From the IMG/VR virus record IMGVR_UViG_2049941000_000062: DNA of 61,425 nucleotides. The stretch is one strand, 5' to 3'. The first letter of the stretch is position 1, and each line of letters starts with the position of its first letter. The DNA comes from an uncultured virus (IMG/VR IMGVR_UViG_2049941000_000062). Its lineage: Duplodnaviria > Heunggongvirae > Uroviricota > Caudoviricetes. The notes under the pieces were generated by a model. It did not search any database. It saw nothing but the letters and a program-made list of their open reading frames with translations, and was not told the DNA's origin. Positions 1 to 39,853 of this stretch are shown here, one piece after another. Position numbers and translations under genes: made by a program.

Positions 1-1
1 T

Positions 2-219
2 AACGCCGAAGACACTATCGAAATGGCTCTAGAATCTATCCCAGACCGTGAGGACGTAGAAATTATCGTTATAGACGACGGCTCTACGGACAAGACCGCA
101 CAAATGGTACGAGAGTTTGGTAGAGCAAGGCTAATTCAGCATAAAAAGAACTACGGACTCGGCAAGGCTCTTAACACAGGCCTTAAAGAATCAACCGGCG
201 AGTATGTAGTTATGCTAGA
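2..219 (+). CDS. GT2 glycosyltransferase fragment (allele of 4989..5723)
   Basis: IVIDDGSTD motif; near-identical to 4989..5723; cut by window edge and N gap. Confidence 0.8.
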
Positions 220-229
220 NNNNNNNNNN

Positions 230-470
230 AGCTGGCTCTTGTGCCGTCTTTCGTGATTATAAGAGCGTCTAAGCGGTCTTTACGGCTAGATAGATACTTT
301 TCCATATAAACTCTAGAACGTGCGTCTAAAAAGCAAATACGAGGCTTTCTGCCCTTTCCTATAACCGTGAATACACCGTCTTTTATCGTATCCCGGTTGA
401 GTTGCACTAACTCAGACACCCGGATACCTGAAGCATACAAAATAGAGATGATAAACTTAGTCCTTATAAT
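230..470 (-). CDS. Tyrosine integrase, central fragment
   Basis: LYASGIRVSEL (catalytic Arg) and VIGKGRKPR; overlaps in sequence with the end of 37070..37549. Confidence 0.85.
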
Positions 471-555
471 NNNNNNNNNNTGCCCCAATGAATATATTAT
501 AGGGTAGCCAAAAGGTTATAACAAGACTTCTTATCTAAGAAGCCTTTTTTAGTGT

Positions 556-606
556 GTTTCTTCGGAGTCTGAACTTGCACTTCAACTCTAGGAGTATAAG
601 AAACGG
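556..606 (+). promoter_or_regulatory. Early-leader hairpin exposing the 23-nt sRNA target (allele A, 563..585)
   Basis: Flanks GTTTCTTCGGAG...CTCTAGGAGTA are shared with allele B (35798..35845, minus); variable loop is complementary to 38047..38069 minus. Confidence 0.7.
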
Positions 607-3714: not shown

Positions 3715-3944
3715 TATTCGGCAAAAGAAAACGCACCTATGTAGACCCAGTAGAGCAGACGTTCAACATTATGATTAAACTTATCAAAGACTTGCCTAAA
3801 GCAGACTATAACCGTCTTAAAAAGGCTATGGACGCTGGCTACCAGAGCTATCAAATCGTTCGCAACGTCAAGACGGACGATGAGCGAGAGAACGCAGATA
3901 TTGACGAATCAGACAGGATATTAACGAAAGAGAGTGGTAAATGA
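3711..3944 (+). CDS. Conserved hypothetical protein
   Basis: Homolog at 32710..32869 minus; ATGA overlap with upstream gene. Confidence 0.7.
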   Translation: MIFGKRKRTYVDPVEQTFNIMIKLIKDLPKADYNRLKKAMDAGYQSYQIVRNVKTDDERENADIDESDRILTKESGK

Positions 3945-5002
3945 TCCTAGTCCGTTCAGAAGTAGAGTTTATAGATATTCGAAATAACAACCAGCTCAGA
4001 AAAGAGGGGGAGGTCTTCGAAGTATCTTATGCACGCCTACTCGAACTAAAAAAGAATGGAGTCAAGGTAAAGGTTATCAGAGTTGATTATCTAGGACGCA
4101 AGAAAAAGACAGGCCCTAAGGTTATGTTCTTCCAGAAATTGCTTTATGTAATTGGAGGAATTGAAACCTGGGGCCTTACTCTCGCTAAACTATACGAAGA
4201 CAGGGATATAACCTTCGTATTCTCTGAGGCAGACGACATTCAACTTATGGAGTTCGCCAAGTATTGTAACGTAGTCGTAGACGACGGACAGAGCCACTAC
4301 AAGTGCGACGTTCTTATATCTTCAAACTACGACGGTGGAGCTATCATTCTAGACCGTGTAGAAGCGAAGAAAAGGTATCAGACTATCCACTCAGACTTCG
4401 AGGCTATCAAGAAGTGTTATGGCTGGCATAACTTCAAGCTTGATATAGNNNNNNNNNNTAAGAACGAGTTTGGCTACGATTCGACTATTATTACTAACCC
4501 CCTGCTACCACTCGGAGAAAAGCCTCTAATTCTTTTAACTCTCTCTAGAGCAAGCGAAGAAAAAGGCTTCTGGCGAATGGTATCTATGGCTAAAAGGTTG
4601 GAAGGTGCAGGCAAACCGTTTATCTGGCTCGTAGCTTCAACCTTATGTGTAGCACCAAAAGACTTGCAGAAGGCAATTAAGTCTATCCCTGAAATGATAG
4701 AAGTAGAGCCACAGTTTTACACTAAGCAGTTGCTACATATTGCAGACTACTGCGTCCAGTTATCTGATACTGAGGCTTATTGCTATTCCATACACGAAAG
4801 TCTTGCTACCGGCGTTCCGGTTATCGCTACCGAGTTCGACCAGGCTAAGAAGATTATCAAAGACGGAGAGAACGGTTATCTCTTAAAGTTCGACTTATCT
4901 AACCTTGACGTTAACAAGATATTTAACAAAAGGCCTACTGGTTTCAAGTACGAAGAAAAGCCAAGCCCACTATGGGAGAAGGTTCTAAATGGTACGCTAT
5001 AA
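3941..5002 (+). CDS. GT4-like (glycos_transf_1) glycosyltransferase
   Basis: GGIETW; EAYCYSIHESLATGVPVIAT (EX7E); DGENGYL; spans one gap. Confidence 0.85.
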   Translation: MILVRSEVEFIDIRNNNQLRKEGEVFEVSYARLLELKKNGVKVKVIRVDYLGRKKKTGPKVMFFQKLLYVIGGIETWGLTLAKLYEDRDITFVFSEADDIQLMEFAKYCNVVVDDGQSHYKCDVLISSNYDGGAIILDRVEAKKRYQTIHSDFEAIKKCYGWHNFKLDIXXXXKNEFGYDSTIITNPLLPLGEKPLILLTLSRASEEKGFWRMVSMAKRLEGAGKPFIWLVASTLCVAPKDLQKAIKSIPEMIEVEPQFYTKQLLHIADYCVQLSDTEAYCYSIHESLATGVPVIATEFDQAKKIIKDGENGYLLKFDLSNLDVNKIFNKRPTGFKYEEKPSPLWEKVLNGTL

Positions 5003-5723
5003 GGTTTCAGTTATTATGGCGGCTTATAACGCCGAAGACACTATCGAAATGGCTCTCAACTCTATCCCAGACCGTGATGACGTGGAGATCATCGTAGTAA
5101 ACGACGGCTCTACGGACAAGACGGCCCAGAAGGTCAGAGATTTCGGCCGTGCTAGGTTGATCCAGCACAAAAAGNNNNNNNNNNATGACGTAGAGATCAT
5201 CGTAGTAGACGACGGCTCTACGGACAAGACGGCCCAGAAGGTCAGAGAGTTCGGTAGAGCAAAACTAATTCAGCACAAAAAGAACTACGGACTCGGCAAA
5301 GCCCTTAACACAGGCCTTAAAGAATCAACCGGCGAGTATGTAGTTATGCTAGACGCTGATGACGACTTCTACCCTGTTATCTTCGAGGAAATTATGGAAG
5401 ATCTAGACGGCACAGATTTAGTTTATTTCAACCTTATCACAAACGACGGTACTATCTTCGATCTAACGCCAAACTCTAGAGATATTTACTGCGGACAAAC
5501 CAAGTTTATACGAAAAGAGTTTATCGGAGATGCCAAGTACGACGAATCAGCTCCGATAGCTGAAGACGTTTCATTCTGGAATGAGTTAAAAGAAAAGAAC
5601 CCGACTGAGAAATACACAGGTCTTGTCGTTAAGCACTACAACTCACCAAGAGAAGGTAGTTTAACTTGGAGAAGACAGCAAGGCGAGTTTAACGATTATT
5701 TAAGAGAGAAAGGCGAGTTATGA
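4989..5723 (+). CDS. GT2 glycosyltransferase
   Basis: VSVIMAAYN, DDGSTD, LDADD; internal duplication at a gap is an assembly artefact. Confidence 0.85.
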   Translation: MVRYKVSVIMAAYNAEDTIEMALNSIPDRDDVEIIVVNDGSTDKTAQKVRDFGRARLIQHKKXXXXDVEIIVVDDGSTDKTAQKVREFGRAKLIQHKKNYGLGKALNTGLKESTGEYVVMLDADDDFYPVIFEEIMEDLDGTDLVYFNLITNDGTIFDLTPNSRDIYCGQTKFIRKEFIGDAKYDESAPIAEDVSFWNELKEKNPTEKYTGLVVKHYNSPREGSLTWRRQQGEFNDYLREKGEL

Positions 5724-6370
5724 AAGTTAGCATCATTATTCCAATCTACAATAGGTTGCACTCTACAATTAAGCTCCTAAGCAAACTAGACGACCAACTA
5801 GACCTCTGGAGGGATAGCGTACAGGTTATCTGTATTAACGACGGTTCAAAAGAAGAACTAGAATGCGAGAAGGCTGTTGAAGGTTTATGCCAGGCGTTTG
5901 GTTTCGAATACTACAAACAGAAGAACATCGGTGGAGCTGCTACTTGTAACAAAGGTATCGAGAAGGTCAAAGGCGACTACTTTACCTTCATCGACTGCGA
6001 TGACGATATAACAGACGACTACATACAAAATATCTTCTCGGAGCTAGGCGATAACGAACATCTTATTGCTTATAAGTGGTACTTCAAAGAGCCTAGAGAA
6101 CTAGGAGAGTGGCACGATAAGCCGTATGTTAACTGGAATGTTTGGAGTTATCTATTTAGAACAGATTATTTTAGCGAGTTCAAGTTTGACGAAAATATTA
6201 ACGTCGGTTGGGACTATGACTTCGTGCATAGGTCGATAGGGTCTAAACCTGATATGTATATCAGATACGTTCCAACTAAGGCGCTAGTTATTTACGATAG
6301 CGAAAACCCACAGAGCATAACAAATATGTTCCACCGTGGAGAAATTAAAGCAAGAAAGGACGACAAATGA
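5720..6370 (+). CDS. GT2 glycosyltransferase
   Basis: VSIIIPIYN, NDGS, FIDCDD. Confidence 0.85.
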   Translation: MKVSIIIPIYNRLHSTIKLLSKLDDQLDLWRDSVQVICINDGSKEELECEKAVEGLCQAFGFEYYKQKNIGGAATCNKGIEKVKGDYFTFIDCDDDITDDYIQNIFSELGDNEHLIAYKWYFKEPRELGEWHDKPYVNWNVWSYLFRTDYFSEFKFDENINVGWDYDFVHRSIGSKPDMYIRYVPTKALVIYDSENPQSITNMFHRGEIKARKDDK

Positions 6371-33019: not shown

Positions 33020-33349
33020 CTACCCCCTGATAAACTTCTTAGTAAAGTCTGCGAAGCGTGTCTTTGTATAGACCTTCTTTACAGAGTCTTCTTTAGCTGT
33101 ATCTGTTGGCTTGAGCTTTGGTGTTCGGGGTTTGTTCGGTTTTGTTGCTGAGCCTCTCTTGCTAATCTTTCCACCTTTAGCGCCTGCAAGTTTAGCCAAG
33201 ACGTGTTCGCCGTTCTTGTTAACAGTTGCGAATCCGCCTGTATGCCCTAGTTTTCCGCCTCTTGCACCGATAAGAGCGTAGAAGTCCTCTCCGTGCTTCT
33301 TCTTGTTAGTTGCGGCAGCCTTTAGGCCACCTGCTTTAGTTCCCGCCAT
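33020..33349 (-). CDS. KGG-repeat protein
   Basis: Homolog of 2948..3145. Confidence 0.75.
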   Translation of the reverse strand: MAGTKAGGLKAAATNKKKHGEDFYALIGARGGKLGHTGGFATVNKNGEHVLAKLAGAKGGKISKRGSATKPNKPRTPKLKPTDTAKEDSVKKVYTKTRFADFTKKFIRG

Positions 33350-33454
33350 TTTACATTTCCTCCATATATTCGTAATCTAAACCTGATTGTTTAATAATTG
33401 ATGGTAGTGAGATGAAACGGTCACCGTATCTGCTCCACCATCTGTTAGTTGTTC

Positions 33455-33733
33455 TCATAATGCCATCCTTGCTTGCTTATAATCTTCATAGCGAGCCTCT
33501 GTCACCGCCTCAGACACTTTCATTAGTCCTTCTTGCACGAGTTTTGCTCTCGTTCGGCGGATAGATTCTGGGTTTGTGACGTTCATAAGGTTTCGGTAGA
33601 TCCCTGCTGAGCAATCCCAGCCGTCTTCTTCCCAAATCTTAGTGATGAGATATTTGTCGTCCTCTGCTACACGCTTATCGAGCTTGTATAGGTTTAAGAT
33701 TCGTGTTCTGAGTTGTGTTGTGTTAATCTTCAT
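33455..33733 (-). CDS. Conserved hypothetical protein
   Basis: Homolog of 2555..2830. Confidence 0.75.
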   Translation of the reverse strand: MKINTTQLRTRILNLYKLDKRVAEDDKYLITKIWEEDGWDCSAGIYRNLMNVTNPESIRRTRAKLVQEGLMKVSEAVTEARYEDYKQARMAL

Positions 33734-33949
33734 TTTGCACCTCCTATAAGTCTTGGTCGTTATTTTGCTACGCTACTTGCGAATACAATCCCACTCGCTA
33801 CGACCATTGCGAATAGTACAATTACTGCGATCATACCTACGATGGTTAAGACCGAAGCGAATACGAAGCCTGGAGTGAACTCCTCTTTCTCGTATTCAAA
33901 TGGTTTTATTTGCTTAGTTTTTTTATTCATACCGTTTACCTCCTTTTAT

Positions 33950-34374
33950 GAACCCTTGAAGCTGACTCAACCTAGCTTCAAGCGTCCTGATGAACTGAGA
34001 TTTGAGAAGGGTGGGCAATATTCTTAATCTCAGCTCGTCAGGCTCTGGTGAATAGCAAACGCACCAGAGTCACCGTAGAGTGTGGTTTAGTGGTTGGATG
34101 GGGTTATTGCATCCAGCCACCTAGTGAGCAGTCGAACCTACTACAGCGGCTATCAAGAGTGGGGAGTTTTATGATCGCCTTCGACTACTCGCNNNNNNNN
34201 NNTAGGATTGCCAGCCTACGCAGTTTGTTTCGGCTTTCGCCTGCCGGCAATCTAGTAGAAACTTGGAGGGGGTTTCGCAATTTGGTGTATGAAACCCCTT
34301 TATGAAGATTAGTTGGCTTCGATATGCCTTCCACTTAGCTGCTCCGCACCTATTGAGCCAGCACCAACTAATCT
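33950..34374 (-). ncRNA. ~400-nt multi-stem structured RNA, allele B
   Basis: Covaries with 1903..2296. Confidence 0.75.
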
Positions 34375-34500
34375 AAATATCTCCGTTGATAGCATCTTCT
34401 AAAATGAGCATTCCAGAGAGCATCGCTTTTTCTTCAGCCTTAGACCTTGCGAGTTCCTTAATCTCGGCTCTCGCTCGGTCTTTTGCTTCTTCTAGGTTCA

Positions 34501-35088
34501 TTAAGCCTCCTTGCGAGAGTCCATCTCGTTTTGGATAATCTTGCAGATAGCTTCCTTTTGCTTGTCCGTGTATTTGCCATACCCCTTGACTGCTGAGAAC
34601 TTCTTGACGAGTTCTGGTGTGTCTAGGCCTTTAACTTCTTCACGGATTTTGTCGAAGTCTATTCCGTTCTTAGCTTGTTCTGGTTGAGCAGGCTTCTTGC
34701 TGACTTGTTTCTGATATTCATCAGTATCAGCATCTTTCGTATCGTCGATAAGGAATAGGCCGTTAAGCGCGTACTTGCGAGCGTAACTCGAAGCTGTGCC
34801 TGTGATTTGGCTTTCGTCCATATCTTTCTTACTATCGGCCTCTCTAGCGTATGCCGTCACCACTTTGTCGGTTTGTCCGTCATTAAATGTGGCGGTTGCT
34901 TTTACATATATCCTTCCGCCGATTTCTACGACCTCGTCCGATAATGTGAGCGTACAATCGTTGCTGGCTAAGAGCGGCTTTACTGCCTCTAAAATATCCT
35001 CAGCTGAGCGATAATTGTAGTTTCCAAAGTTGTTCCTCTGGTTCTTTGGAGCTTTAAGCTCCGATTGAATCTGCATTAACTTCTTCAT
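34501..35088 (-). CDS. ERF family ssDNA-annealing protein
   Basis: YNYRSAEDI and QITGTASSYARKYAL motifs. Confidence 0.85.
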   Translation of the reverse strand: MKKLMQIQSELKAPKNQRNNFGNYNYRSAEDILEAVKPLLASNDCTLTLSDEVVEIGGRIYVKATATFNDGQTDKVVTAYAREADSKKDMDESQITGTASSYARKYALNGLFLIDDTKDADTDEYQKQVSKKPAQPEQAKNGIDFDKIREEVKGLDTPELVKKFSAVKGYGKYTDKQKEAICKIIQNEMDSRKEA

Positions 35089-35591
35089 AGTTCTTTTTCC
35101 CTTCTATTATTTCTTCTATCGTTTCGCCTTGTTCTAGGCGGTATATTACATATTCACCTATCTTACTCATAGTATTTTGCTCCGTAGTTTCTGTGGCTTG
35201 ACCAGTAATCAAAGCAGTCGTTTGCGAGATACTCTGCGANNNNNNNNNNCGTCAACTCGTTTTTCTATCTCGGCGGTTGTTTTGTTGTAGTGTCTTGCCA
35301 TTCGCTTAATGTAGTAATCTCGATTGTCTTTAGTTATCAACCCCATAACGTTTCTCCAATCTTGCGAAAATAGCCATAAATAATAGTAGGAATACGATCC
35401 AGCTAATGAGCTTAACGATTCCGTTGTCTGATAAAGCGATTTGATACATACATATCATCTCGATAAATAGTTCTAATTTAATAATCTTCATATTGTTTCT
35501 CCTTTTCTTCGTGAAGCTGTATGGCTAGAGCAGATAGTGTGAGAGATGATAATTTGGAAGGTTTGACTAACGATAGTCATTTATTATTGGG

Positions 35592-35641
35592 TCTCTCATA
35601 ATCTAAAAATTGCGAATCTCTCATAATCTAAAAATTGCGAA
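35592..35641 (+). repeat. Perfect 25-bp tandem duplication
   Basis: TCTCTCATAATCTAAAAATTGCGAA x2. Confidence 0.85.
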
Positions 35642-35848
35642 GTGCTAGAACCTATAACCGAAGGCCTCTACGAATGAACATAAACCTACAAAAAATGNNN
35701 NNNNNNNTACCTTCTGATCTAGCCGTATAGCCTCACGAATCTTAATTTTTCTTAGTGGCTAAATTGTTAAAGAGTTTGAGTTCTGCCTTCCGGCGAGTTT
35801 CTGTTACTCCTAGAGCTAAATCGACTGTTCAAGCTCCGAAGAAACCGT

Positions 35849-35876
35849 AAAAAAAGACTTCTTGATAAGAAGTCTT
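35849..35876 (-). terminator. Terminator-like hairpin at the entry to the early leader
   Basis: AAGACTTCTT-ATC-AAGAAGTCTT + U-tract; imperfect equivalent at 523..550 plus. Confidence 0.6.
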
Positions 35877-35912
35877 GTTATAACCTTTCGGCTAGTCTAT
35901 AATAATTTCATT

Positions 35913-35959
35913 GGGGACGTAGCTCATCTGGTAGAGCGCAGCATTCGCATTGCGAAGGT
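35913..35959 (+). tRNA. 5' half of tRNA-Ala(CGC) within attP (incomplete tRNA)
   Basis: GGGGACG TA GCTC ATCTGGTA GAGC G CAGCA TTCGCAT; no T-arm or acceptor 3' strand follows; TTGTTA-17-TATAAT promoter upstream. Confidence 0.8.
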
Positions 35960-36209
35960 TCTCTACCTAGTTATGTTTGATTTCTTATCGTANNNNNNNN
36001 NNNNNNNNNNNNNNNNNNNNNNNNNNNNNNNNNNNNNNNNNNNNNNNNNNNNNNNNNNNNNNNNNNNNNNNNNNNNNNNNNNNNNNNNNNNNNNNNNNNN
36101 NNNNNNNNNNNNNNNNNNNNNNNNNNNNNNNNNNNNNNNNNNNNNNNNNNNNNNNNNNNNNNNNNNNNNNNNNNNNNNNNNNNNNNNNNNNNNNNNNNNN
36201 NNNNNNNNC

Positions 36210-36317
36210 ACAGGGTTCGGTTCTACCGTTTGCTCCCCTGTGGTTTTTTTGTGTTAACAGGTATGGTATAGTCAGATATTCGTCGATATACCTCCTAACA
36301 GCTTCTGATATCTTCAT
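36210..36317 (-). pseudogene. Internally deleted integrase allele
   Basis: MKISEAVRRY (integrase N-terminus) joined without a gap to the integrase 3' end TACCATACCTGTTAA and its downstream hairpin. Confidence 0.7.
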
Positions 36318-36401
36318 ATAAAAAACTCCCCCANNNNNNNNNNCCGCATTAGTTAATATACGTTAGGGGAATGAACTTTGGTAGTGTTTAAGCCGATTTC
36401 G

Positions 36402-36615
36402 CTATTGACACTCTCTGCCGATACAAGCCACGAAGTAGTGAGCTGGCGATTTCTTAGTTGAGGCGATATCTACGAGTTCCCAGAATCTAGTACCATCTAA
36501 GTAGCAAGCACCCTTAGCTACAGCATCGTGCCACCTAGCTTCTACTCTTAAACGTTGCATAGCGGCTGAGATCATATAGTCTCGCTCTTTAGTATCCAAG
36601 TTGTTAGTCCTACCT
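36402..36615 (-). CDS. Allele of the 96-aa gene upstream of integrase
   Basis: Homologous to 37598..37888. Confidence 0.7.
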
Positions 36616-36625
36616 NNNNNNNNNN

Positions 36626-36859
36626 GCCTCTACTATCCAGCTAGTTATCCGTAATGCTACCGAAAAGGCTGGACTACAAAAGAAGGTAAGTCCACACACG
36701 CTGCGCCATAGTTTCGCCACTAACTATATCGGGAACGGTGGAAACATCAGACACCTTGCCGATCTGCTAGGCCACGCAAGCCTTAACACTACCGCCCACT
36801 ACACACACATAGTGAATAACGATCTAAGGAGGGAATATAGCCTGTACCACACCTGTTAA
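36626..36859 (+). CDS. Tyrosine integrase C-terminal fragment
   Basis: PHTLRHSFAT, LLGHASLNTTAHY (HxxR, H, Y); not in ORF track. Confidence 0.9.
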   Translation, partial: ASTIQLVIRNATEKAGLQKKVSPHTLRHSFATNYIGNGGNIRHLADLLGHASLNTTAHYTHIVNNDLRREYSLYHTC

Positions 36860-36945
36860 CATCAAAAAACCACAGGGGGACACACGCTAGAAGCGAACCC
36901 TGTGGATAACTCATTATACCATACAAAAAATCTTTTGTAAAACTA

Positions 36946-36974
36946 TTGACTATAATGCTTATGAGTGCTATACT
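36946..36974 (+). promoter_or_regulatory. Strong sigma70 promoter facing attP
   Basis: TTGACT-17-TATACT with TGn extension. Confidence 0.7.
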
Positions 36975-37069
36975 AAAGTTAAGAAATCGCAAATTAAAAG
37001 GACATATAGATTTACGATAAGAAATCGAACATAGCTGGGTAGCGCACCTTCGCAATGCGNNNNNNNNNN

Positions 37070-37549
37070 TGTATCTCGGTTGAGTTGCACTAGCTCGGAC
37101 ACTCGGATACCTGAAGCATACAAAATAGAGATGATAAACTTAGTCCTTATAATATCCGTTGACGCTATCATTTTGTCTACTTCTTCGGCTGTTAGGAACG
37201 CTGGCAAAACAGGGTCTTTTCTCGGTGTTGGTATAAGTGTGTAGTCTATACATTCTTCGCCTCTGAGTTTCCAGTATTTAAGCACCATTCTAAGGTTGCA
37301 TAGGTAGTTATGAATCGTATTATTACACCTATGCCGGCCATAAGTAGCTAGCTCAGTCTTAAACTTAGATATAATAGCTAGGTCTATATCTTTTAACTCT
37401 GTATCTCCAACAATATCGCACCAGTACCTAGCCAAAGCTCGGTAGTGGAATATCAGAGCCTTATTCACACCTTTAATAGATAAATATTCCTCCTCATATC
37501 TCCGCACCGCCGTAGATAGTTTCATATAAAAAATACTCCCCCACCTCAT
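37070..37549 (-). CDS. Tyrosine integrase N-terminal part (probable start 37525)
   Basis: SAM-like N-terminus then LPAFLTAEEV...SGIRVSEL. Confidence 0.88.
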
Positions 37550-37597
37550 TAGTTGATATTGTGGGGAAGCTATAACCGTTATGAACTTTGGTAGTGT

Positions 37598-37888
37598 TTA
37601 AGCGTATTTCTTAATCTCTTTACCGATACAGGCTACGAAGTAGTGAGCTGGAGAGTTCTTAGAAGAAGCAATATCTACTAGCTCCCAAAACTTAGCACCT
37701 TCTAAATAACAAGCTCCTCTAGCTACTGCGTTATGCCATTGTTCCGATATACCTAGTCTTCTCATAGCCGTTGAGATCATATAATCTCTTTCTTTTACTG
37801 CTAAACCGTTAGTCCTATTCATTGAATCATTGAAGTTTCTTTTAAGAAACTTATCACTGATATTCATTGAAGTAGCTTTGTTCCCCAT
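37598..37888 (-). CDS. 96-aa hypothetical protein co-oriented with integrase
   Basis: SD AAGGAGG; other alleles at 36402..36615 and 38731..38794. Confidence 0.75.
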   Translation of the reverse strand: MGNKATSMNISDKFLKRNFNDSMNRTNGLAVKERDYMISTAMRRLGISEQWHNAVARGACYLEGAKFWELVDIASSKNSPAHYFVACIGKEIKKYA

Positions 37889-38013
37889 AAATCCTCCTTT
37901 TTATAAGCACCCAAAATAAGTAGCCGTATGTAGGCACAGCCTTGAGTATTGTTGTTATGTAGAGTTTTCCACAATCGTACGAAACTTGCTTGAACTCATT
38001 GTTTGTCTTCTGT

Positions 38014-38072
38014 AAACAAAAGACTCCTGCCACACTTAGTGGCTAACGGAGTCTGAATTTGCACTTCAATAC
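38014..38072 (-). ncRNA. Candidate immunity sRNA/attenuator, allele A
   Basis: TTGACA-17-TAATAT promoter (38105..38077); AGACTCC/GGAGTCT terminator; 22/23 complementary to 563..585. Confidence 0.75.
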
Positions 38073-38110
38073 CTTTATATTACACCAGATCGACTAAAAT
38101 GTCAATAGCC

Positions 38111-38720
38111 TTAGCTGGAAGTGGTGTAGTCTATGATAATGTATCCTGAGTTAGTTTCACTCATAGCTGTTCCAAGAACAGAAGCCCAAGTATTCTTGTT
38201 TATATCACGAATTGAAATACCATAAGGTACTACGTTATCTGGTGGAGCAGAGTTAATATCGACATAGTTGTTTGATCCGTCATACCACATACCGTCTAAA
38301 CGGATAAACACCTGGAAGTTATTAGGGAATGCCCTATCCCAGTTATGAGCCGTGTATCCTCTTGTAAGATTTGAAAATGGTTGAACCCTACGATATAAAG
38401 GCTTACCCATAAACGTCCCCAACCTAACGTCCGTAGTAGCGTTGCCACAGTCTATCAGGCTAGGGTCTATTTTTGCAGCTGTGATCGCATTATCTGCGAC
38501 CTTAGCCGTAGTTACTGCGTCATTTGCAAGTTTAGCCGTAGTGATAACACCGTCTGGAATATCCTTATAGTCTATGTCTACCGACTGCGTGCCGGTCTTG
38601 TCCGTGATGTTGATCCTGATACCGTCTGCAATAGTCTGTGTGGTTATAATAGGGCTAAAACCGTCTGTGCCTGGAGTTCCTGGGTCTCCCTTCTCTCCTG
38701 GCTCTCCTGGCTCGCCAGGA
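38111..38720 (-). CDS. Tail fibre C-terminal part (collagen-like repeat)
   Basis: PGE repeats, DGVITTAKLA repeats; probably continues 43790..44104. Confidence 0.7.
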
Positions 38721-38917
38721 NNNNNNNNNNATCCATTGAAGTTTCTTTTAAGAAACTTTTCATTGATATTCATTGAGTATCTGTTGTTCCCCATAAAATA
38801 CCTCCAATTTTTAACACCCAAAATGTAGTCCTGTTTAGTCGTACACACCAGGTTAATTATATTATGTAGAGTTTTCCACAGTTCTAGAATAGTAGATCAC
38901 TCGCTCGTTGAGCTTCT

Positions 38918-38975
38918 AAAAAAGCTCCGTCCCTACTAGAGGGGATAGACGGAGCTTGAATAGTCGATTTAGTAT
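38918..38975 (-). ncRNA. Candidate immunity sRNA/attenuator, allele B
   Basis: TTGACA-17-TACAAT promoter (39008..38980); AGCTCCGTC/GACGGAGCT + U6 terminator; 22/23 complementary to 35816..35838. Confidence 0.78.
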
Positions 38976-39004
38976 CTTTATTGTAGCAAAGATTGGCTAA
39001 AATG

Positions 39005-39853
39005 TCAAGCCGTACGCTTCCACATATAGACCGTTAAGTACGGTGGCATATTGTTGTGTGGTTGTCCACCACCAGCAGGTATGATAGCGTTGCTTGTATC
39101 GACAGGATCGCTCGTCAACTGTTGTCGTGACATAGCGTCCTTGTCATTACCGTTGCCTACACGTCTAAAACCTTGCGAGCTGTGGGTGTGGCTTGGCATC
39201 TCTTCAATAGTAAGAGTATGCGTTGCTTCACCACCTGTCGCACCAGCCGTATATGTATCGCCTGCCGAGAGTAGGAACGTATCTTCTATCTGTTCCCAAA
39301 TACCCCCCATAAATGTTTCTGGGCTTACATTGTTTACCGACATATAGATCGAGCCAACTGGGTAGATGATGCTAAGAGCTACGTCCTTGAACGCTTGCTC
39401 GGTTGGTATGTAAGCATCTTCCCCCGGATCGCCTTTAGGTAACGTGAGGTTAAGTGTTTGATCCGGTGGAGTTCCAGTTATAGTAGCGCCAGCCGTAGCA
39501 CCACCTTGTACAACCCCAATAGACAGGGAATTGGCTGGGCCTGGCTCTCCATTTGCCCCTGGAGGCCCTTGAATACCTCTAGGCCCTTGAAACTGTGCGC
39601 CTTGACCTTCTTCCGGCCACCTCTCCCCAGTCCATATATAGAGTAAGCCGTCTGCTTGGACGAAATATGCTACTCCAGCGTCTGACGGTGTTAAGTGGTG
39701 TGGCAGATCGGAATATGTGTCTACTGAGCCGTCTATCTCAAGACCTGCCCCAGCAGGGCCTGGAAGCCCTTGCAAGCCTCCAGCACCCTTTACTATCACG
39801 TGTGTATGTTCTTGTGATACTTTGACTAGGTTGTTTACTACGTTTGGTTGCAT
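39005..39853 (-). CDS. Short tail fibre/collar-domain protein
   Basis: Gly-X-Y repeats; YPVGSIY...HNNMPPYLTVYMWKRTA. Confidence 0.8.
   Translation of the reverse strand: MQPNVVNNLVKVSQEHTHVIVKGAGGLQGLPGPAGAGLEIDGSVDTYSDLPHHLTPSDAGVAYFVQADGLLYIWTGERWPEEGQGAQFQGPRGIQGPPGANGEPGPANSLSIGVVQGGATAGATITGTPPDQTLNLTLPKGDPGEDAYIPTEQAFKDVALSIIYPVGSIYMSVNNVSPETFMGGIWEQIEDTFLLSAGDTYTAGATGGEATHTLTIEEMPSHTHSSQGFRRVGNGNDKDAMSRQQLTSDPVDTSNAIIPAGGGQPHNNMPPYLTVYMWKRTA

Follow-up and report, generated by a model that had tools for sequence, protein, structure and literature searches.

Integration at a tRNA gene appears to part an early phage promoter and a putative RNA antiterminator strand from the early genes

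The switches of temperate phages are normally built on a DNA-binding repressor. The locus downstream of the integrase gene of an uncultured tailed virus (IMG/VR record IMGVR_UViG_2049941000_000062, Caudoviricetes; the whole stretch of 61,425 nucleotides that was analysed is referred to as the window) raises the question of whether recombination itself can act as the on/off switch, as proposed in a first-pass annotation, according to which a promoter next to the integrase is connected to the early operon only through the intact attP. The window is a scaffold of 54 pieces, which are linked by N runs and include many duplicates that are 70-95% identical, and at least two related tailed phages are mixed in it, with genes for terminase, portal, ERF-like protein and tyrosine integrase. 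The two copies of the att arm derive from two co-assembled phage variants, A and B, with the following pieces and joints.

36626-37059, 37070-38720 and the leader at 481-1804: pieces of variant B
35250-35992, 36209-36615 and 38731 onward: pieces of variant A
35993..36208: scaffold gap of 216 N, really about 100 nt in contigs, homologous to 37012..36913 (joints 35992>37012 and 36209>36913)
37013..37059, + strand: attP arm of variant B, up to the core
35946..35992, - strand: attP arm of variant A, with the antiterminator strand (discussed below) at 35989..35982
33020..35491, - strand: early genes of variant A (membrane protein, ERF-like annealing protein, KGG-type protein and others)

Both variants can be followed across the scaffold breaks in contigs of public runs. 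For variant B, a contig of X3/X4 (these two are one sample, possibly the source of the window) runs from 36746-37037(+) through 35967-35864(-) into the leader at window 481 onward, and for variant A, another X3/X4 contig runs from 35992 through about 100 nt resembling 37012..36913 to 36209-36615 and then to 38731. The join of promoter, attP and terminator is also present in contigs of X5 and X6, which are from two other studies. The gap at 35993..36208, whose closure the first-pass annotation had named among the ways to check its proposal, is bridged by these contigs and contains the promoter region of variant A, the homologue of that of variant B. In both variants, the promoter lies upstream of an intact attP that is joined to the tRNA half and the leader, and the continuation of the att-arm copy through the tRNA half into the early leader, as claimed earlier, is seen as a physical join. 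The two arms, described earlier as the same sequence, do differ, as 42 of the 47 letters agree between 35992..35946(-) and 37013-37059(+), and the shared stretch (TACGAT...) begins at 37013 and not at 37010.

The promoter region contains the following elements.

36870..36905, + strand: hairpin after the integrase stop codon
36913..36941, - strand: promoter-like site in back-to-back arrangement with P_att, reading into the 3' end of the integrase in antisense direction
36946..36974, + strand: P_att of variant B, a TG-extended TTGACT-17-TATACT between integrase and attP
36986..37018, + strand: inverted repeat P1 at the transcript 5' end, its 3' arm overlapping the antiterminator strand

The promoter that had been noticed downstream of the integrase is indeed present at these coordinates, the C-terminus of the integrase (+) ending at 36859. 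Matches of 10/12 to the promoter are about as frequent as expected by chance (12 sites, against 8.4±2.6 in shuffles), and P_att carries weight because a promoter recurs at this position in 35 of 43 loci, as found by a script; the consensus is that of sigma-70, which is assumed to hold in Saccharibacteria. The promoter-like site that faces the other way is strong, and a similar -10 box occurs in six of eight relatives.

The 43 loci are contiguous loci of relatives that were gathered by integrase searches, a set from which duplicated entries, contigs that stop too early and the weakest matches were removed. The rule of the script is TTG..-16 to 18-.A...T with at least 9/12 matches, plus a hairpin with a U-tract downstream. 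By this rule, promoter and terminator are found in 35 of the 43 integrase loci, or in 34 without L220, which was dropped before the duplex test described below and in which the 'terminator' of the script is a tRNA arm; no promoter is found by the rule in L004, L207, L229, L230, L234, L238 and L241, and no terminator in L215. The order integrase, sigma-70 promoter, attP, terminator and early leader is conserved in 34/43 relatives. When examined by eye, the tRNA piece between promoter and terminator is a 5' or a 3' half, sense or antisense (all four orientations occur), and derives from Ala, Thr or Val tRNAs, the order of parts being unchanged. Complete tRNA genes are also seen in some relatives, namely a tRNA-Ala antisense inside the attP leader (L214, L215, L222) and a tRNA-Ser elsewhere (L212, L213).

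The geometry of the att site of the window is defined by a phage-borne tRNA piece and its promoter.

35941..35953, + strand: att common core, around the anticodon loop of tRNA-Ala(CGC)
35913..35953, + strand: phage-borne 5' half of tRNA-Ala(CGC), 41 nt
35875..35903, + strand: phage promoter for the rebuilt tRNA, TTGTTA-17-TATAAT

Host tRNA and phage sequence diverge directly after the anticodon stem-loop core. The exact 41-nt match to 35913-35953 occurs in 8 of 120 genome loci among the matches listed for a degenerate tRNA pattern, and all eight loci are titled Saccharibacteria or Nanosyncoccus, and the phages target tRNA genes of Saccharibacteria, which are tiny bacteria of the gut; ARAGORN, and Rfam at gathering score, give no match anywhere in the window. 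The phage's own promoter and 5' half (window 35875-35953) and the intact tRNA at one lysogen junction (see below) are features of integration that replaces the tRNA 5' half, which we take to be class IA. A stem is formed across the core, in which GGTAGAG (variant A arm) pairs with CTCTACC. This att stem has 7 pairs, 4 of them changed on both sides, and P1 has 9 pairs, 2 of them changed on both sides, with one position unpaired in 8/11; these counts are inflated by the relatedness of the phages and are limited to P1 and the att stem, the terminator columns of alignment A3 being misaligned for L004, L011, L014 and L015. P1 could be either an RNA hairpin or a protein site. In L003 (7030-7110), the tRNA 5' half and its promoter are lost and the core is kept, so that integration at tRNA-Ala would leave no rebuilt tRNA and this phage may be non-integrating or use another site; the pairings are kept in it and the stem across the core is rebuilt.

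The separation of promoter and lytic genes by integration, claimed from the window, is seen at real lysogen junctions, as attL and attR, which were still to be located in host genomes, are found in two prophages and one further junction. In G001 (contig C3), a complete prophage of 28.1 kb lies between two cores. One end has the integrase, the promoter TTGACA-17-TATACT, the antiterminator strand CGTAAGGT and the core, followed by host DNA, and the other end has an intact tRNA and then, on the phage strand, the matching terminator, the leader and the early genes; the two junctions share a 67-bp block. The geometry is the same in G329 (contig C1), a more distant, likewise complete prophage of 31.9 kb in a tRNA, with the promoter of the host tRNA directed into the terminator. 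The 161 nt of locus L287 that lead to the core are alike to those of the free phage L235 and are followed by host tRNA sequence, from which L287 is identified as a lysogen junction of L235. Single junctions of like kind are seen in L134/L163 and in L075, in which the 5' half of a host tRNA runs into terminator and leader. Such prophages are scarce among the genomes searched (8/401 in the family of G001 at E<=1e-75, G001 counted); an integrase word search of the genome contigs did not find relatives, and the prophages were reached via the tRNA pattern. For G388, G295 and G270, which have a junction of integrase, promoter and tRNA 3' half, a matching second junction with the early leader was not found, and these are excluded from the evidence, together with G591 and G609, which carry such junctions as well.

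It was also considered whether the early genes are served by a second promoter on the far side of attP. The scan covered the same strand from +20 to 450 nt beyond the terminator for matches of at least 10/12 or an extended -10, which is slightly stricter than P_att itself requires, as P_att is a 9/12 match in six loci, all TG-extended. A same-strand promoter-like site is found in just two of 34 relatives, L019 and L227, that of L227 being located ahead of the tRNA half on the integrase side, and from attP to the first early gene the scan gives none for window variants A and B or for the G001 junction. A start at the TATAAC near 35880, which in the first-pass annotation would have spoken against control through attP, does not fit the comparison of nine close relatives, in which this element is not conserved on the minus strand (TTACTC, TATTAC, TTATCA and TTTAGC occur at its position); it coincides in part with the -35 box of the tRNA promoter on the other strand (35875..35903, +).

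Beyond attP, the transcript from P_att meets a predicted terminator.

35849..35876, - strand: intrinsic terminator of variant A, before the early leader
523..550, + strand: terminator of variant B
37016..37023, + strand: antiterminator strand of variant B, GATAAGAA, the complement of 528-535 in the 5' arm of the terminator

The hairpin at 35849..35876, which would argue against the earlier proposal if it fully blocked read-through, is a conserved terminator, yet a covarying complementary strand upstream of attP would offer a way through it. This strand of 8-11 nt is located at about +33 to +40 of the predicted transcript, on the promoter side of attP; it is complementary to the 5' arm and loop of the terminator beyond attP, and both change together. 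The strand/arm pairs are GATAAGAA/TTCTTATC in window variants A and B, CGATACAG/CTGTATCG in L011, CAACGGA/TCCGTTG in L014, CTAAGCTTGG/CCAAGCTTAG in L211, TTTCGATCT/AGATCGAAA in L236 and CGTAAGGT/ACCTTACG in G001. In the duplex test, 34 loci, G001 and the two window variants were grouped into 24 clusters by terminator arm. The mean cognate duplex is -10.25 kcal/mol when compared with -6.66±0.47 kcal/mol for permuted partners (best of 100,000 permutations -9.1); the cognate partner ranks first in 11/24 clusters, and the cognate duplex beats dinucleotide shuffles at p<0.05 in 15/24 and does not in 9/24. The signal is absent in the control test with the terminator 3' arm, and it is also absent in L216, L218, L219, L228 and L214. 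In the in-context folds of 31 loci, the 5' arm is better protected than in any of the 25 shuffles in 15 cases, the mean being -5.7 vs -2.6, and in 12/31 two or more of the 25 shuffles match the protection of the cognate. In G001, in which the match is kept across 28 kb, protection is -7.2 kcal/mol in the computed excised form and -2.9 kcal/mol at the natural lysogen junction, and the excised form has a further 16-bp helix between the two ends, spanning the joint. This control fails for G329 (excised form -1.2, lysogen -4.3, shuffles -3.1±1.5). The probability of the antiterminator when the loop has just been made (35/35) was discarded as a measure, the natural lysogen junction also giving 0.92, and protection energy was used instead.

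In equilibrium folds of 35 full leaders, the stem probability is at least 0.5 for the terminator in 29 and for the antiterminator in 9. The terminator thus usually wins at equilibrium, and read-through would need kinetic control or a helper. The other strand shows complementarity of equal strength (z -8.6 vs -7.6) and counts of G.U vs A.C do not fix the strand, so that the strand assignment rests on the direction of promoter and U-tract. A short RNA strand appears to unlock the early-gene terminator, and the duplex test points to base pairing that is specific for one terminator. The split antiterminator, missed in the first-pass annotation, is then the predicted second divided part of the switch.

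Immediately after the terminator, the leader contains the target of an antisense sRNA, followed by a conserved motif.

38018..38105, - strand: sRNA gene and promoter of variant B, 3' end approximate
38918..39008, - strand: sRNA gene and promoter of variant A, 3' end approximate
563..586, + strand: leader site complementary to the variant B sRNA
35816..35838, - strand: leader site complementary to the variant A sRNA
35762..35774, - strand, and 631, + strand: conserved leader motif TTAACAATT, about 85 nt after the terminator

The predicted promoter of the sRNA is about 520-630 nt upstream of the integrase, and the first 22-25 nt of the sRNA are complementary to the leader hairpin directly after the terminator. 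The best sRNA/leader duplex is -38 kcal/mol or stronger in 31/35 relatives, and for variants A and B the cognate pairs (-38.3, -43.6) are stronger than the crossed pairs (-20.9, -31.7), in a comparison of cognate with crossed pairs only. The target starts about 10 nt past the U-tract, and this position requires a start of the early transcript ahead of the target, again pointing to P_att. The pairing region of the sRNA also covers the 5' arm of its own terminator (window 38018-38071 and 38918-38974, -), and it is conceivable that leader RNA allows the sRNA transcript to continue past this terminator into the rep-like gene and the integrase gene. The TTAACAATT motif is present in 29/34 relatives vs 70/1150 background windows, and it resembles, in our view, a boxA antitermination site; NusB is present in five of five host genomes tested, and the motif may add Nus-dependent antitermination downstream.

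The integrase and its neighbours in the window are the following.

36626..36859, + strand: tyrosine integrase of variant B, C-terminal part
37070..37528, - strand: tyrosine integrase of variant B, N-terminal part
36254..36317, - strand: integrase remnant of variant A, start fused to end, about 790 bp deleted
37598..37888, - strand: 96-aa gene between sRNA and integrase, no family

The full-length integrase has 281 aa in relatives, its sole Pfam domain found being the catalytic PF00589, and these integrases end in a conserved HTC/HTI. In variant A, the first and last codons are joined, apparently at a 5-bp microhomology. The remnant contig has a depth of 52-67, the same as its flanks, from which it follows that the remnant is the main form in that sample; variant A keeps attP and the whole leader and cannot integrate by itself, and the loss may be recent. 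A second integrase allele is seen at window 230-470. Among 113 ORFs (57 of the complete relative G405, 50 of the G001 prophage and 6 of the window), Pfam recognises no HTH, repressor, excisionase/Xis or arm-binding domain, a result that stands for absence of recognition, as most small ORFs have no family. HTH_3 is found in none of five near-complete relative genomes. An unrecognised repressor, small xis or antiterminator protein is possible among the small ORFs. For the 96-aa protein, the leads in the ESM Atlas are only below 0.9 and are to Rep C-terminal. Short tandem repeats occur at the start of the gene (37598-37975, 38731-38880, -), the words upstream of it are presumably DnaA-box-like, and the protein may be a replication initiator with its origin.

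We consider it quite probable that this layout reflects an early operon whose expression is coupled to excision and whose antiterminator is split. As long as the phage is free and attP intact, P_att would fire across attP, and the strand at about +33 to +40 would capture the 5' arm and loop of the terminator as these emerge about 110 nt later, assisted by the nested stems across the core, so that the polymerase would go through the terminator into the leader and the early genes. Integration at the tRNA anticodon loop would leave promoter and antiterminator strand at one prophage end, facing host DNA, and terminator and early genes at the other, where the unopposed terminator would insulate against host read-through and the tRNA would be restored from the 5' half and promoter that the phage brings. 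Copies that superinfect or are re-excised would be silenced by the antisense sRNA, predicted to be constitutive, which would pair with the leader directly behind the terminator, and excision would restore the circuit. In the clade of the window, the tRNA promoter would fire head-on across attP and could bias the outcome to termination; the other orientations are without it. Integration thus seems to turn the virus off without a recognisable repressor protein, and integrase activity would decide between lysis and lysogeny. The earlier suggestion that recombination is the on/off switch gains support from the layout, the contiguity, the lysogen junctions and the near absence of recognised rival promoters, all as read from sequence.

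It is conceivable that P_att drives the early operon across attP but that the promoter is the only divided part, read-through being due to a protein or to leakiness, and that the complementarity is a minor tuner or a relic of a duplication of the terminator 3' arm. This is in agreement with the equilibrium folds, in which the terminator wins in 29/35, with the failed protection test of G329, with the conserved loop of P1, which could bind a protein, and with the NusB of all five host genomes. Nevertheless, the strand stays near +35 and covaries with the terminator across many unrelated sequence types, and the boxA-like motif sits after the terminator and so cannot aid passage, and this reading is considered unlikely. 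Less likely still is a discrete RNA of about 170 nt, made from P_att and ending at the terminator (e.g. antisense to the tRNA half), the early genes using an unrecognised internal promoter. The sRNA target about 10 nt past the U-tract leaves little space for an upstream start, no conserved promoter-like site is found, and the layout is the same whichever tRNA half or orientation is present, which a role antisense to the tRNA does not explain, even when considering that non-consensus or activator-dependent promoters would escape the scans and that the strong conserved terminator with its U-tract and the equilibrium folds are as expected for such an RNA.

The inverted complementarities could also be DNA features of recombination (integrase sites or a folded single-stranded attP) and not RNA features, to which we assign the smallest probability. 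The partner is specifically the 5' arm of the terminator, the sequences differ among phages whose integrases are about 80% identical (L003, L011, L014), the spacing around the core is asymmetric and the phage is a terminase-packaged tailed phage. These points are set against the strand symmetry of the complementarity, the integrase without recognised arm-binding domain and the operator-like appearance of P1.

The excision-coupled operon with its split antiterminator can be compared with several known systems. Immunity of phage P4 (CI RNA) and of P1/P7 (C4) is RNA-based, and integration is not known to sever the lytic promoter in these phages. Here, too, a small RNA with complementarity to the early leader is predicted and is the likely immunity factor; no match to RNA families of this type is found by Rfam in the window (gathering score) or in three relatives (E<=2). 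The split-operon control of int in phage P2 and the sib retroregulation of lambda are also cases in which integration rewires a transcript that crosses attP; unlike here, what they are known to control is the expression of integrase alone, and the switch itself is operated by a protein repressor.

The analogy with mycobacteriophage BPs drawn earlier is a loose one. In BPs, Brujita and Charlie, attP lies inside the repressor gene and integration removes a degradation tag, C-terminal tags of this kind being a feature of both Rep and Int, and the minimal switch of BPs requires Int, Rep and Cro, as described in PMC3694055 and PMC9934374 (the former for the minimal switch). What stands of the analogy is that recombination sets the lytic or lysogenic state, that no xis is seen (here, no excisionase family is recognised among the 113 ORFs) and that the integrase (here 281 aa with PF00589 only) has no recognised arm-binding domain. 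What does not hold is the splitting of a repressor gene: the core is located in leader sequence that is non-coding, with the promoter on one side and the terminator on the other, and in place of divergent rep/cro promoters with an operator, the integrase, P_att and early genes are co-oriented, with no HTH gene nearby and no repressor or cro recognised.

A closer match is the conjugative element Tn916, in which, according to PMC11658703, Porf7 and canT are at one end and terminator T1 and the transfer genes at the other, canT being a 452-nt processive element that works on heterologous terminators. In both systems, a promoter and a cis-acting RNA antiterminator (here a putative one) are parted from the operon while integrated and are joined by circularisation, and a terminator shields the operon from host read-through; here, promoter and operon are at opposite ends in G001, G329 and L287, and a predicted insulating terminator is present in 34/43 loci. 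Different here are what looks like a short base-pairing strand matched to one terminator in place of canT, the fixed tRNA site, the added antisense sRNA and the genes under control, which are those for lytic growth of a tailed phage; the element carries genes for terminase, portal and virion and is not conjugative. The system is apparently a variant of excision-coupled antitermination that serves as a repressor-free phage switch, the phage counterpart to that of Tn916.

In the literature searched, comprising main texts from outside most subscription journals, no phage with a base-pairing antiterminator split by attP and no lysogeny control of a Saccharibacteria phage was found; the patescibacterial phages of PMC13059738 are unrelated to these. 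With recombination and two RNA pairings in place of a repressor, this would, if true, be the simplest phage switch yet, and it would provide the first testable regulatory model for Saccharibacteria phages and a compact expression part of about 200 bp that is recombinase-gated and terminator-insulated. The chances are evenly balanced that these phages represent a widespread temperate family of Patescibacteria that switches without a protein repressor, recombination splitting promoter and base-pairing antiterminator, with superinfection immunity from a sequence-specific antisense sRNA, immunity groups that follow RNA complementarity and a leader RNA that may turn on the rep-like and integrase genes.

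At the G001 junction (L160 1500-1600), the outward phage promoter points into a host gene, which we take to resemble histidyl-tRNA synthetase, and the prophage could raise its expression. In Saccharibacteria chromosomes, junctions of integrase, promoter and tRNA 3' half are seen amid host-like genes (L165, L168, L169, L288, L289), several with a rep-like gene and an sRNA-like hairpin upstream; these are possibly satellites or remnants. Loci L013 and L020 are one contig of 56,946 bp, in which two related phages, one targeting tRNA-Ala and the other tRNA-Thr, are in tandem with both attP intact, either as a tandem form or by misassembly. Clusters of glycosyltransferase genes come after the early genes at window 1-219 and 3941-6370 and in L274 (188-2554).
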